A stretch of 64,000 nt of DNA from Thermoanaerobaculia bacterium (GCA_963816185.1 CAWFJJ010000028.1:224001-288000), one strand, 5' to 3'. Positions 44,634 through 51,956 are shown, counted from the first letter of the stretch. Program-made: numbers and translations. Notes: a model not told the origin generated them from the letters alone.

Positions 44634-44918
44634 ATGAAGACAGGCCGCCGTAGGAGCAGGTCTTCGCCGGGGGTCGTCCCACTCAGGGACCTCGTCCCCC
44701 GAAACGACCCCAAGGGGGGCATGGCACAGAAGACGGTCTTCGGCGAAGGTCCCCCGGTTCTCGAGACAGAGGAGAAGCAGCCTTTCACGACGTTCGGGCC
44801 GAACGAAGGCGGAAGCCGGGTCACGGCCAGAACAGGGAGAAAGGAGAAGCGAAATGAAAAAGGCCACGAAGAATTCCCCGAAGGTCTCTCACAAGAAGGC
44901 GAAGGACCTCGAGGTTAA
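44634..44918 (+). CDS. Small protein with VVPLRDLVPRNDPKGG...KTVFGE motif, copy 1
   Basis: Paralog at 51215; 3' part runs through the array repeat. Confidence 0.55.
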   Translation: MKTGRRRSRSSPGVVPLRDLVPRNDPKGGMAQKTVFGEGPPVLETEEKQPFTTFGPNEGGSRVTARTGRKEKRNEKGHEEFPEGLSQEGEGPRG

Positions 44919-44997
44919 GCCTGCCAAGGGCGGCACGGTTCGTGGAGGGCTCGGAGGGAGCCACGGAGACGACACCCCAATAGAAAGTCGTCGTTGA
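44854..44997 (+). CDS. Double-glycine leader peptide P2, core LGGSHGDDTPIESRR
   Basis: MKKATKNSPKVSHKKAKDLEVKPAKGGTVRGG; AAGGAG RBS. Confidence 0.85.
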   Translation: MKKATKNSPKVSHKKAKDLEVKPAKGGTVRGGLGGSHGDDTPIESRR

Positions 44998-45102
44998 CGC
45001 GCGAAGACCTGTATCACTCGTAGCAAGGTTACCGTTGCTGTCGATGGCTTTTGGAAGGCAGTAGCCTGCTCGCGGCCAAAACAGGAAGTAAGGAGACACG
45101 AC

Positions 45103-45234
45103 ATGAAGACCAAGAAGAAGAGCGCCCCGAAGGCTTCCCACAGGAAGGCGGTCAGAAATCTCGACATCAAGCCCGCCAAGGGTGGGACGGTGCGTGGAGG
45201 AAGGAAAGCAGGCGAAAAACCGCTGGAGTTTTGA
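45103..45234 (+). CDS. Double-glycine leader peptide P3, core RKAGEKPLEF
   Basis: MKTKKKSAPKASHRKAVRNLDIKPAKGGTVRGG; AAGGAG RBS. Confidence 0.85.
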   Translation: MKTKKKSAPKASHRKAVRNLDIKPAKGGTVRGGRKAGEKPLEF

Positions 45235-45397
45235 GTATCAGCGACAATTGAAGTCGCCGCTGCCGGCGAGGTCGTTTCACGCCGTAGAAGGGCTCGCCCC
45301 TCAGGCAGCACATTCCTGCGGCAGCTTTCATCGGATGTTCCGGCCGAACGAAGGCAGAAGCCGGGTCACGACCGAAACAAGAAAGAGGAGAAACGAC

Positions 45398-45529
45398 ATG
45401 AAGAAGACCACGAAGAAGAGCCCCTCGAAGGCCTCTCACAAGAAGACGGTCAAGGACCTCGACGTCAAGCCCGCCAAGGGTGGGACCGTTCGTGGGGGCT
45501 TCCCGACGCCATGGAGAAGCAAGCCCTAA
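45398..45529 (+). CDS. Double-glycine leader peptide P4, core FPTPWRSKP
   Basis: MKKTTKKSPSKASHKKTVKDLDVKPAKGGTVRGG; GAGGAG RBS. Confidence 0.85.
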   Translation: MKKTTKKSPSKASHKKTVKDLDVKPAKGGTVRGGFPTPWRSKP

Positions 45530-45570
45530 GGCCGCTCGAAATGACGCGGCATCCAGAAAGGAGCAGCGAC

Positions 45571-45666
45571 ATGAAGAAGGCTACGAAGAAAACCCCCTCG
45601 AAAGCCTCTCAGAAGAAGGCGGTCAAGGACTTCGACGTCAAGCCCAGCAAAGGGGGAACGGTTTGA
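45571..45666 (+). pseudogene. Peptide P5 leader truncated by IS3 just before RGG
   Basis: MKKATKKTPSKASQKKAVKDFDVKPSKGGTV, then the IS terminal TGA. Confidence 0.8.
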
Positions 45667-45713
45667 ATCGCCCCGGCATTTCCGGAGGCTCCAACACTTG
45701 AGAGGATGGAGCG

Positions 45714-46034
45714 ATGGGAAGACGAGGCAGATACCCGGCGGAGGTCAAGGAGCGGGCCGTGCGGCTGGTCTTCGAGCAGCAGTCGGAGCACGGCTCGCAG
45801 TGGGCGACGATCAGCTCGATCGCGGGCAAGATGGGCTGCACGCCCGAGACGCTGCGGAGCTGGGTCAGGCAGGCCGAGCGAGACAGCGGCGCACGGCCCG
45901 GACTGACGACGTCAGAGCGTGAGCGGCTCAAGGAGCTCGAGCGTGAGGTCCGCGAGTTGCGGCGAGCCAACGAGATTCTGAAGAAGGCCTCGGCGTATTT
46001 TGCGCAGGCGGAGCTCGACCGCCGAGCGAAGTGA
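45714..46034 (+). CDS. IS3 transposase OrfA
   Basis: [28 protein letters not shown]. Confidence 0.93.
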
Positions 46035-46945
46035 TGGTCAATTTCGTCGAGGAGAACCGAGCCTCGTATGGGGTCGAGCCGATCTGCGCGATGCTGCCGA
46101 TCGCCCTGGCGACGTACTACGAGCGAAGGGGCCGAAGGCTCGACCCTCACAAGCGCCCGGCGCGCGCCAAGAGTGACGAAGCGCTGGTGAGCGAGATCCA
46201 GCGCGTCTACGACGAGAATCAAGAGGTCTACGGAGCCGAGAAGATCTGGCGGCAGCTGGGGCGCGAAGGCAAGCTCGTGGCGCGCTGCACGGTCGAGCGA
46301 CTGATGAGGACGATCGGCCTTCGTGGAACGGTCCGGGGCCGTGCCTTCAAGGTCACGACGACACCCGACAAGCTCGCCATACGGCCCCCGGACCTCGTCG
46401 AGCGGCGGTTCGAGGCCGACGCCCCAAATCAGCTCTGGGTCGCTGATCTGACCTATGTGGCCACGTGGGCAGGCTTCGTGTATGTGGCATTCGTCATCGA
46501 CGTCTTCGCCCGCTTCATCGTCGGCTGGCGGGTGTCGCGCTCTCTTCGCAGCGATCTGGCGCTGGACGCCCTCGAGCAGGCCCTGTACTTCAGGCCTCAT
46601 ACCGAGAGGCTCGTCCGCCACAGCGACCGTGGCGTGCAGTACCTCTCGATCCGCTACACCGAGCGCCTCGCCGAGGCCGGCATCGAACGCTCGGTCGGAA
46701 GCGTGGGCGACTCATACGACAACGCGCTGGCCGAGACCATCAACGGCCTCTTCAAGACCGAGGTCATCCGGCGTCGCGGGCCCTGGCGAAATATCGACGA
46801 AGTGGAAATTGCTGTTCTGGAATGGGTCGACTGGTTTAACAACCGAAGGTTTCTCGGTCCCATCGGCTACGTGCCCCCGGCCGAGTACGAGGCGGCCTAC
46901 TATCGCAGTCAGGAAACCCCAGCCGCAGTGGCTGGACTCAGATAA
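46031..46945 (+). CDS. IS3 transposase OrfB (DDE)
   Basis: [22 protein letters not shown]. Confidence 0.93.
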
Positions 46946-50479: not shown

Positions 50480-50691
50480 GCACCGGCACCGTCAACACGT
50501 CCTTCGCCCCGATTGGCTCGAATCTCCCGGACTGCGGCAACTTCTTTTGCCGTGACCGCCGACGCATCGTCCATGTGCGGAAGGGATCTCCAGGCTTTCG
50601 CGCGTGCCCGACGCCGGGATGCACGCGGCCGACGGGGTTCGGAGCGTTCGCCGGGGTGCCGCGACCTGCGCGAGAATTGAGACGCCGATGA
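50476..50691 (+). CDS. Small Cys-rich protein, paralog of 47505
   Basis: MSTGTVNTSFAPIGSNLPD...CPTPGC; GTGA overlap with kinase stop. Confidence 0.5.
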   Translation: MSTGTVNTSFAPIGSNLPDCGNFFCRDRRRIVHVRKGSPGFRACPTPGCTRPTGFGAFAGVPRPARELRRR

Positions 50692-50939
50692 GTTCGACGC
50701 GAACCCCCTCATGCTTCTTCTGCGGCCGAACCTCGCCTTTTTCGTTCTTCATGGGGGCGTCGCGGATAGACTGTCCGACCTGCGGCTCGTACGATGTGAC
50801 TGTCGGCGTGAGCAGCCGGATCCGTTCCAACCCGCAGATGAAGGCGTTGGTCCGCGCGGAGATCCGCAGGCAACTTGACAGCGGAGTCGCGAGGCCGCGC
50901 ATCAACCTCGACGACATCAAGGCACTCAAGGGGCGTTGA
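50688..50939 (+). CDS. Small Zn-ribbon protein, paralog B
   Basis: CFFC...CPTC; paralog of 42934. Confidence 0.7.
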   Translation: MSSTRTPSCFFCGRTSPFSFFMGASRIDCPTCGSYDVTVGVSSRIRSNPQMKALVRAEIRRQLDSGVARPRINLDDIKALKGR

Positions 50940-51064
50940 CCTCGGCTGTCGGCCTGCCTCAGGTCCCCTCGCCTGTCACAAGCACCCGCGCCTCCCCCGG
51001 CGCGGCCTCCGCCTCGGGGAGCGACCTCCCCGGCTCGATACGCTCGACGACGCCGAGGCCCGCG

Positions 51065-51174
51065 ACGGCGCCGCCTCGGAATGAGCCACTCGAAACGATG
51101 CAGCATCGCATCGAAACGAGACAGGTCGGTCCGAGATAGGCGCCGCTGAGGGCTTGAGACCGCTTCTCAGCCTA
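51065..51174 (+). promoter_or_regulatory. Conserved non-coding block upstream of peptide array 2
   Basis: Matches 44228-44338. Confidence 0.5.
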
Positions 51175-51214
51175 CGGCATGGCGTTTGCCTTCCGTTCAG
51201 CCGGCCATAGTGCG

Positions 51215-51439
51215 ATGAACACACGCCGCCGCAGGACAAAGCCGCCGCCGGGGGTCGTCCCCCTCAGGGACCTCGTCCCCCGGAACGACCCCAAGGGGGG
51301 CTCGGCCGGGAAGACGGTTTTCGGCGAGCGTCCCCTGGTCACCGAGACAGAGGAAAAGCAGCACATTCAGGATGTTCCGGTCGAACGAAGGCGGAAGCCG
51401 GGTCACGGCCGAAACAGCACGAAAGGAGAAACGACATGA
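51215..51439 (+). CDS. Small protein with VVPLRDLVPRNDPKGG...KTVFGE motif, copy 2
   Basis: Paralog of 44634. Confidence 0.55.
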   Translation: MNTRRRRTKPPPGVVPLRDLVPRNDPKGGSAGKTVFGERPLVTETEEKQHIQDVPVERRRKPGHGRNSTKGETT

Positions 51440-51597
51440 AGACCACGAAGAAAACCCCCTCGAAGCCCGCTCACAAGAGGGCGATCAAGGACCTTGACGT
51501 CAAGTCCGTCAAGGGCCGCACGGTTCGTGGGGGAATCGTGAAACTTGTCGACGCGGACTCTCCCAAACTCCACGATACGCCCGTGAAGGGCGGGTAA
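51436..51597 (+). CDS. Double-glycine leader peptide P8, core IVKLVDADSPKLHDTPVKGG
   Basis: MKTTKKTPSKPAHKRAIKDLDVKSVKGRTVRGG; AAGGAG RBS. Confidence 0.85.
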   Translation: MKTTKKTPSKPAHKRAIKDLDVKSVKGRTVRGGIVKLVDADSPKLHDTPVKGG

Positions 51598-51713
51598 GGA
51601 CTGAAGCAACTCGAACACCACACCGCTTCCCGCGAGCGCAAACATGGTCCGGCGCCGGAGGTCTAGAGCGGCTCGTCGGGTCACGCCCGAAACAGGAAGT
51701 AAGGAGACACGAC

Positions 51714-51866
51714 ATGAAAAAGACCACGAAGAAAAGCCCCTCGAAGGTTTCTCACAAGAAGGCGGCCAAGGACCTCGCCGTCAATCCCGCCAAGGGCAGG
51801 ACGGTCCGTGGAGGCCTTGGAAGCGTCGAGGGAGAGTCGATTCGCAAAGGTCACAGTCCAGATTGA
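51714..51866 (+). CDS. Double-glycine leader peptide P9, core LGSVEGESIRKGHSPD
   Basis: MKKTTKKSPSKVSHKKAAKDLAVNPAKGRTVRGG; AAGGAG RBS. Confidence 0.85.
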   Translation: MKKTTKKSPSKVSHKKAAKDLAVNPAKGRTVRGGLGSVEGESIRKGHSPD

Positions 51867-51956
51867 CTACGGGAGGAATTAGCCCTCTCAGGACGTTCCG
51901 GCCGAACGAAGGCAGAAGCCGGGTCACGACCGAAACGGGAAGAAAGGAGAAAAGCC

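Follow-up and report, generated by a model that had tools for sequence, protein, structure and literature searches.

Two arrays of predicted double-glycine-leader peptides with Hcp-like tails, probably under sigma-54 control, in a soil acidobacterium

Precursor families in which conserved leaders stand before very diverse cores, and in which a peptidase-containing ATP-binding cassette (ABC) transporter (PCAT) cuts after Gly-Gly, form an established pattern among the systems treated in two accounts (PMC10885120, PMC2890512). A passage of the second poses the question of how cores come to differ within 9–60 nt while the rest stays constant (PMC2890512). Here we describe ten small open reading frames (ORFs), the peptide units u1–u10, which lie on the + strand at positions 44446–52097 of a 64,000-nucleotide stretch of DNA from a soil acidobacterium (Thermoanaerobaculia). 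This stretch, called the window below, is positions 224001–288000 of contig 28 of a 5.09-Mb metagenome-assembled genome. The units have the layout of double-glycine precursors, and many of their tails resemble segments of Hcp, the tube protein of the type VI secretion machine.

Each unit is made up of a Shine-Dalgarno site 6–8 nt 5' of its ATG, a Lys-rich leader of 33–34 residues ending in VRGG, and a tail (core) of 9–20 residues (Table 1). Nine of the ten open like MKKTTKKSPSKASHKKTVKDLDVKPAKGGTVRGG (the example is u4, 45398–45499) before passing into 9–20 unit-specific residues, and the products are 43–53 residues long, with cores that contain no Cys. The units fall into array A (44253–47444) and array B (51090–52097). 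We consider it likely that these are two separate small operons of one peptide family and, as part of the same judgement, that they are sigma-54-dependent satellite operons of a double-glycine-leader multi-precursor family, whose cores would be Hcp segments and whose junction between leader and core would be the cleavage site. Pfam and NCBIfam, including the NHLP (TIGR03793) and Nif11 (TIGR03798) leader models, gave no family at E<=1 for any of the nine window peptides scanned.

The preliminary description of this DNA had noted that conserved sequence switches to unique sequence at the GG codons, and binned identities bear this out. The second GG codon pair served as the anchor of each unit, and mean pairwise DNA identity was calculated in 12-nt bins. 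For eight window units (28 pairs), the five bins 5' of the junction gave 0.56, 0.72, 0.71, 0.73 and 0.85 and the five bins 3' of it 0.28, 0.32, 0.25, 0.24 and 0.26, that is, 0.71–0.85 over the 48 nt before the junction versus 0.24–0.32 over the 60 nt after it. The same step was seen with 20 units taken genome-wide (190 pairs); since identity drops at the GG codons, the switch is real and sharp. The motif CGTGGNGG stands directly 5' of the unique DNA in eight of the ten units, the exceptions being u1, whose leader ends in AAAGGAGGC (KGG), and u5, which is interrupted by an insertion sequence (IS) of the IS3 family three codons short of the GG. The conserved part ends in GG in nine of the ten units, u5 being truncated. 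The second GG is invariant, and the first is lost in four (u6, u7, u8 and u9) of the eight intact units with a standard leader (u2–u4 and u6–u10). Cores had also been described as AT-richer; they are, modestly, with a GC content of 0.55 and a third-position GC content (GC3) of 0.69 versus 0.59 and 0.83 for the leaders. The GC3 of the resident hcp gene is 0.69.

Comparison of leader paralogues (55 pairs) gave proportions of 0.159 for non-synonymous (pN) and 0.416 for synonymous differences (pS), with pN/pS = 0.38, and the differences at codon positions 1, 2 and 3 numbered 288, 310 and 632. The excess at third positions and the low pN relative to pS indicate that the leader is translated and under purifying selection, and that its copies are old. 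The conserved copies are coding sequence, 60–88% identical to each other, and the units start at irregular distances of 173–4126 nt.

As judged from their sequences, the tails are conserved copies of different Hcp segments, which across the family tile nearly the whole protein. Forty-two Hcp proteins of relatives went into a profile, on which the tails alone were scored against 300 shuffles each. Six of the nine window tails, namely u1 (positions 65–76, P 0.003), u2, u3, u7, u8 and u9, matched at P<=0.007 and at distinct positions of the profile, and u6 was borderline (P 0.020, and 0.035 in the family-wide run). The likeness is apparent by eye in u3, where RKAGEKPLEF corresponds to RKAGGDDPLEF in the resident Hcp. 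Family-wide, 60 of 120 tails matched at P<=0.02 and spanned profile positions 22–183, and 48 distinct tails together cover 154 of the 160 profile columns occupied by the resident Hcp. Of 21 metagenomic members compared with the Pfam model PF05638, nine were matched, at its positions 2–28 and 38–75. A complete Hcp domain (about 130 positions in PF05638) is absent, each tail spanning 6–27 profile positions and the longest member measuring 81 residues. Overlapping tails are 0.51 identical to each other versus 0.39 to the average Hcp, and the Hcps nearest to them (0.42 identity) are signal-peptide-bearing Hcp-like proteins of relatives. Tails that retain Hcp motifs and also tile the protein in this way are difficult to account for unless likeness to Hcp is selected. 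We note that several Hcp-family proteins of relatives (loci L061, L067 and L071–L074), which are the closest to the tails, start with apparent Sec signal peptides.

Individual tails are also kept between assemblies. The u3 tail is identical (10/10) in family member P0002 and recurs with one extra residue in P0014, the u9 tail is matched at 15/16 residues in P0064 and 14/16 in P0084, that of u10 at 10/12 in P0086, and that of u6 resembles the end of P0126. An orthologue of u1 heads the array in metagenome locus L080.

Both arrays are preceded by a repeat, a candidate site for a sigma-54 activator, and by a sigma-54-type -24/-12 element (Table 1). The repeat was matched twice in the window versus 0 expected, and the GG-N10-GC pattern three times versus 0.14 expected; this pattern follows the -24/-12 consensus. 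The promoter element and its upstream repeat are kept before seven arrays in five assemblies, with GG and TTGC invariant. The genome carries rpoN, on contig 28, and a sigma-54 activator gene, on contig 6. With the pattern, the activator and rpoN all present, the arrays have the composition of sigma-54-dependent operons, and the two elements are predicted promoters. A scan of the arrays for sigma-70 promoters and terminators found no promoter, and nothing resembling a terminator on the + strand. The third sigma-54-like match (13826–13839) lies inside an ORF with an HMGL-like domain (12740–14107) and is probably due to chance.

A candidate exporter is encoded on contig 6 (8407–11589), directly upstream of the main array of the family. 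This 1060-residue protein combines two cNMP-binding domains with Peptidase_C39 (1.2e-32), ABC_membrane and ABC_tran domains, and its best NCBIfam match is the NHLP-type exporter TIGR03796, at 527 bits versus a cut-off of 853. It contains the strings ...DEMDCG... and ...HWVVL..., presumably the catalytic Cys and His motifs. HlyD-like ORFs and the sigma-54 activator gene (12858–13763) adjoin it, a GT41 glycosyltransferase is encoded inside the contig-6 array, and Cys-rich proteins are also found on that contig. Peptidase_C39 has three matches in the genome. At 455871–456721 of contig 29, an Hcp-like gene is preceded, 225 nt upstream, by a single isolated family peptide, and a second C39 transporter (441365) is located about 14 kb upstream.

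These elements can be assembled into a mechanism. The leader would serve as a handle for the contig-6 C39 peptidase ABC exporter, acting in trans; cleavage by the exporter would follow the second, invariant Gly-Gly and free the tail of 9–20 residues outside the cell. The sequence before the GG would thus be one homologous, selected module, and that after it a different, non-homologous product. Since PCATs cut after GG and accept diverse cores (PMC10885120), export would require joining exactly at the GG. Units could exchange sequence by recombination or gene conversion, or be duplicated, and so give new leader–tail combinations, with tracts that would end at the junction because homology ends there. 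A dedicated acquisition machinery would not be needed.

The clearest case of exchange comes from the units at 18051 and 20719 of contig 6, which are about 94% identical (hand count) over about 150 nt, from about 45 nt 5' of the ATG to the GG, and then continue into unrelated tails, one at Hcp positions 44–65 and the other like the Hcp C-terminus. Among the 134 distinct family peptides, leaders are at least 90% identical in 67 pairs, and 36 of these pairs carry unrelated tails. Leader identity is 0.67 and 0.62 within genomes and 0.65 between genomes; leaders thus do not cluster by genome, and concerted evolution within one genome was not observed. In the metagenomic member P0043, a second leader end (...GGTVRGG) lies inside the tail, between two different tail segments, in the manner of a recombination scar.

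Genome-wide, the family counts 28 members at E<=0.001 plus u1; ten lie in the window, 16 on contig 6 at 13.9–22.2 kb, and one each on contig 6 at 73.5 kb, on contig 12 and on contig 29. Searched exhaustively with the family profile, 1.84 billion representative proteins yielded 52 members of 43–81 residues, and a word-indexed profile search retrieved 149. The family was found in one of the 60 relatives searched (G011, of the same genus), and Hcp in 27 of the 60, all in the window's own family (27 of 36); at 1/60 versus 27/60, peptide family and Hcp are not coupled. Array order was compared in G011, L080 and L081, the scan of genome contigs having yielded the G011 contig only, and that of metagenome contigs at least two loci. 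The preliminary description had named two findings that would speak against it, cores that align as diverged homologues and relatives with the same arrays in the same order, and the outcome is mixed: some cores do align (u3/u7, u6/u8, and u4 with a contig-6 core), and the arrays of G011 differ from the window arrays in content and order. On metagenome contigs, the zinc-ribbon gene, the promoter, a u1-type gene and a 74-codon ORF accompany the arrays. No RNA run was among the sequencing runs listed for the arrays. Four DNA runs held 0.37–0.39 of the sampled words and gave low-depth, fragmentary contigs with joints like other organisms' paralogous units, and on one contig a leader was joined straight to the upstream region of the next unit; no conclusion was drawn from either.

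Several points weigh against the proposal of two sigma-54-dependent operons encoding exported Hcp segments. Hydrophobic residues at -4, -7 and -12 are named for double-glycine leaders among those treated in PMC10885120. On a count from the second GG, the valines at -4 and -12 agree with this, whereas G, S or R occupies -7. With the first GG as reference, all three positions agree (A at -4, V at -7, V/I at -12), but this GG itself is not conserved. The leader is moreover strongly basic, unlike typical double-glycine leaders. On the Hcp profile, no match was found for u4, u10 and many contig-6 tails. PF05638 matched none of the nine window peptides at E<=10 with Pfam's own filters, the window tails being shorter, so that the Hcp claim for the window rests on our own profile and its shuffles. 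The exporter, a modifying enzyme and the activator gene are all absent from the window, which is why action in trans has to be supposed. As for exchange, near-identical protein leaders may reflect constraint and not recent events, and the support at DNA level is one clear pair, on contig 6 and outside the window. Leaders of same-tail pairs are slightly more alike (0.750 versus 0.695, a difference reached in 0 of 500 permutations), so that part of the history is plain vertical descent. Finally, the peptides and their expression are predicted from the genes.

For the origin of the cores, the preliminary description had offered two possibilities, acquisition at a fixed junction, as in a repeat–spacer array, or strong diversifying selection on the core. 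In its literal form, the former calls for a dedicated mechanism by which coding 'spacers', taken from hcp or from foreign DNA, are placed after a fixed repeat. In its favour are tails that share no homology with each other and derive from separate parts of a single protein, the second leader end within P0043, and a region that holds an IS3 element and a resolvase. Other findings weigh against it. A blastn-short search of the genome with nine window cores plus 80 nt, the 3' DNA that had been proposed as a query, placed none on resident hcp genes, and the sole window core with a DNA paralogue is u4 (contig 6 17424–17472, 88% over 49 nt). Tails are only about 0.39–0.42 identical to relatives' Hcps, and tails of the same types are met again in further assemblies; the leaders are paralogues of long standing (pS 0.42), and the 'repeats' are diverged, irregularly spaced coding sequence. 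In the limited view given by the arrays of L080, L081 and G011, no acquisition machinery or integrase-like gene is conserved beside them. We therefore regard active capture as improbable, and what survives is a looser version, in which different cores are found behind one module at a fixed junction, as in the contig-6 pair and the 36 leader pairs. The other possibility is that a single ancestral core has undergone diversifying selection or targeted hypermutation, for instance by a diversity-generating retroelement, which would predict the abrupt change from conserved to unalignable DNA. We find it scarcely credible, since tail lengths vary from 9 to 20 residues, tails map to different Hcp segments and their types are kept between assemblies at up to 10/10 residues; there is no reverse transcriptase in a Pfam scan of 46 ORFs, and no second core copy except that of u4.

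Could the units be decayed debris, that is, broken hcp fragments or chance ORFs in GC-rich DNA with no peptide function? A Shine-Dalgarno site before each ATG, a leader under purifying selection, a conserved promoter before each array and 52 representatives among 1.84 billion proteins, all of 43–81 residues, make this very improbable, even though the ORFs are very short and free of family annotation and the region is IS-rearranged, with one unit truncated. Neither are remnants of a longer gene in evidence. A three-frame search of the 150 nt after the stops found no Hcp remnant (the best score, 1.0 bit, fell on the next unit's leader), and no leader is fused to a full-length Hcp: the longer word-search matches were the run-on ORFs P0049 and P0050 only, and the exhaustive profile search reached at most 81 residues. 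We also think it unlikely that these are ordinary precursors of peptides made by the ribosome and modified after translation (RiPPs), in which Hcp likeness is a relic and activity, unrelated to type VI secretion, comes from tailoring enzymes such as the contig-6 glycosyltransferase and Cys-rich proteins. Such a relic would hardly account for tails that retain the best-conserved motifs of Hcp and together tile 154 of the 160 profile columns; on its side are the position of the GT41 gene within the contig-6 array, the 60 of 120 family tails without Hcp signal, and the lack of coupling between the family and Hcp.

Returning to exported Hcp segments, our preferred guess as to function, a conjecture, is that the tails mimic Hcp surfaces or strands and so interfere with, or sense, type VI secretion. 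More tentatively, and in our view with the odds rather against it, the arrays could be an evolved 'peptide scan' of Hcp, an exported library that covers nearly every segment, is built and reshuffled by recombination ending at the Gly-Gly codons and acts by mimicry. Such peptides might block or cap Hcp assembly in rivals, serve as decoys, or signal type VI attack to kin through a sensor, for example the membrane kinase encoded between the arrays. Should the peptides prove to act on type VI secretion, they would represent a new countermeasure or signal in bacterial warfare and a natural source of peptides directed at the Hcp tube. If the scan is real, this would be the first bacterium to export a systematic fragment set of a secretion-machine protein, and the old question of how such short core cassettes can differ while their leaders stay constant would have a concrete answer. 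The question of core variation is testable in this family, because the source of the cores (Hcp) can be named and the junction is visible at the DNA level.

The DNA upstream of the units had been described as a ~60-bp non-coding repeat with a near-palindromic stem, present in most of them. The full ~60-nt sequence with GTTCCGGCCGAAC is found in five of the ten (u2, u4, u7, u8 and u10), where the description holds as to its presence; u3 and u9 have the proximal ~35 nt only, u5 and u6 another short upstream region, and u1 its own. Nor is it simply non-coding: a conserved Arg-rich ORF of 74 codons has its 3' end there. The intact copy before u8 has 69–78% amino acid identity to four full-length copies (72–74 residues) in L080, L081, G011 and contig 12. 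Of this ORF, only the final ~22 codons are left before u7 and u10, and a 37-codon remnant of like sequence, absent from the tblastn list, stands in the same frame upstream of u4. Remaining copies are partial, in two pieces or with stops, and contig 6 also has copies. This ORF, with a GG motif of its own, may encode a second class of GG-peptide. The stem fared no better: RNAalifold on 18 copies of the upstream repeat gave -8.15 kcal/mol with a covariation term of 0.06 and one compensatory pair, a weak fold with no covariation support. An Rfam scan of 42000–55000 found the IS3 ALIL pseudoknot twice, two sub-threshold chance hits and nothing for the upstream repeat.

Other genes and mobile elements surround the arrays (Table 1), in an island that has undergone rearrangement. 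The inverted IS3 copies (45657–46980 and 53300–54623) bracket 6.3 kb (46981–53299) with u6, u7, the kinase gene, array B and the resolvase gene, and matching target duplications are missing from their flanks, which points to a rearrangement between the two. Direct repeats of 193 nt (47503–47695 and 50474–50666, 85% identical) correspond to two copies of the zinc-ribbon gene, which flank the kinase gene, and a third, truncated copy lies at 43205–43266. The kinase was rejected as a lanthipeptide-type synthetase, its similarity being that of a generic kinase domain, far below cut-offs, and the cores having no Cys. The CxxC paralogues at 42793–43170 and 50604–50939 are of no known family, and each lies upstream of an array. 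At the left edge of the island (38465–42561) are ORFs of 879 residues (no family), 437 residues (Ig domain) and 235 residues (no family). Farther away, a 428-residue ORF call (25008–26294) has an Hfq domain at residues 352–410 only, and the real hfq is probably its short 3' part.

Table 1. Peptide units, predicted control elements and neighbouring features, in window coordinates.
Feature	Position	Strand	Remarks
u1, head of array A, divergent leader ending KVKGG	44446..44592	+	E 0.06 to family profile; tail like Hcp Gly-rich loop
u2, leader and 15-residue tail	44854..44997	+	Hcp profile 135-147, P 0.003
u3, leader and 10-residue tail RKAGEKPLEF	45103..45234	+	Hcp profile 110-119, P 0.003
u4, leader and 9-residue tail	45398..45529	+	no Hcp match
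u5, leader cut after ...GGTV by IS3 element	45571..45666	+	stop codon is the first three IS bases
u6, leader without first GG and 12-residue tail	47027..47158	+	Hcp profile 77-86, borderline
u7, leader and 11-residue tail	47307..47444	+	Hcp profile 111-119, P 0.007
u8, leader and 20-residue tail	51436..51597	+	Hcp profile 81-99, P 0.003
u9, leader and 16-residue tail	51714..51866	+	Hcp profile 34-45, P 0.003
u10, leader and 12-residue tail	51957..52097	+	no Hcp match
Upstream repeat of array A, inverted repeat GATGC-N6-GCATC within two direct TCGAAACGA copies	44253..44282	+	candidate sigma-54 activator site (predicted binding)
Upstream repeat of array B	51090..51119	+	
Sigma-54-type -24/-12 element A (GGAACGGTACTTGC)	44340..44353	+	GG-N10-GC pattern
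Sigma-54-type -24/-12 element B (GGCATGGCGTTTGC)	51176..51189	+	GG-N10-GC pattern
Intact 74-codon Arg-rich ORF, own ...DPKGG motif	51215..51439	+	TGA overlaps u8 ATG (ATGA); last third is the '60-bp repeat' and holds the u8 ribosome-binding site
Frameshifted copy of 74-codon ORF	44634..44857	+	tblastn: two pieces, two frames
IS3-family element, orfA 45714-46034, orfB 46031-46945, frameshift pseudoknot	45664..46976	+	Rfam ALIL pseudoknot, 95 bits
Second IS3 copy, inverted, 99% identical	53300..54623	-	
Four-Cys zinc-ribbon-like small protein, copy at 50476-50691	47505..47726	+	no Pfam family; homologue beside arrays in L081
Ser/Thr protein kinase, C-terminal TPR repeats, between arrays	47747..50479	+	Pkinase 3.5e-50 and TPR families; link to peptides conjectural
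CxxC small protein, paralogue of 42793-43170	50604..50939	+	weak zinc-ribbon hits only
Serine recombinase (resolvase), end of array B	52360..52977	+	Resolvase 3.2e-38

Among described systems, the NHLP/Nif11 multi-precursor systems come close, in that the accounts consulted portray many precursors with one GG-ending leader, diverse cores, a C39 exporter and genes scattered away from it (PMC2890512, PMC10885120). Leaders there are given as longer than 70 residues (PMC10885120), whereas here they measure 33–34 residues, are Lys-rich and match no leader model. The transporter here is below the TIGR03796 cut-off, and the cores are free of Cys and would be Hcp segments. Prochlorosin-like families, too, combine within a single genome conserved leaders and cores of great diversity. 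LahT-type clusters share this arrangement, nine LahT precursors being mentioned in the account that describes them (PMC10885120). Cores of both LahT and prochlorosin types are, however, lanthipeptide substrates of one synthetase, whereas here no synthetase is known and the cores appear to come from one structural protein.

Class II bacteriocins, class II microcins and competence-type peptides are likewise short, unmodified, cut after GG and exported by PCATs, with hydrophobic residues at -4 and -12, features which for the present peptides are predicted from genes. The family differs from them in its non-hydrophobic -7 position (counting from the second GG), its basic leader, its 10–17 genes per array and its predicted sigma-54 control, and no immunity gene was recognised. 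Polymorphic toxin loci, as far as outlined in PMC3482391, offer a parallel for the sharp junction, a conserved module being joined there to non-homologous C-terminal ends exchanged by recombination, but they encode large proteins with toxin domains and immunity genes, in contrast to peptides of 43–53 residues without a toxin domain. CRISPR arrays also alternate conserved and unique DNA. Here, by contrast, what is conserved is a leader that is translated and has its ribosome-binding site, 60–88% identical and irregularly spaced, the unique parts are conserved peptide-coding sequence that other genomes also contain, and the Pfam scan of 46 ORFs revealed no cas-type genes. Most of the full-text literature searches found no description of such Hcp-like peptides. 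The architecture is of the known double-glycine-leader multi-precursor kind, and its unusual part is that the cores are conserved fragments which together tile Hcp.

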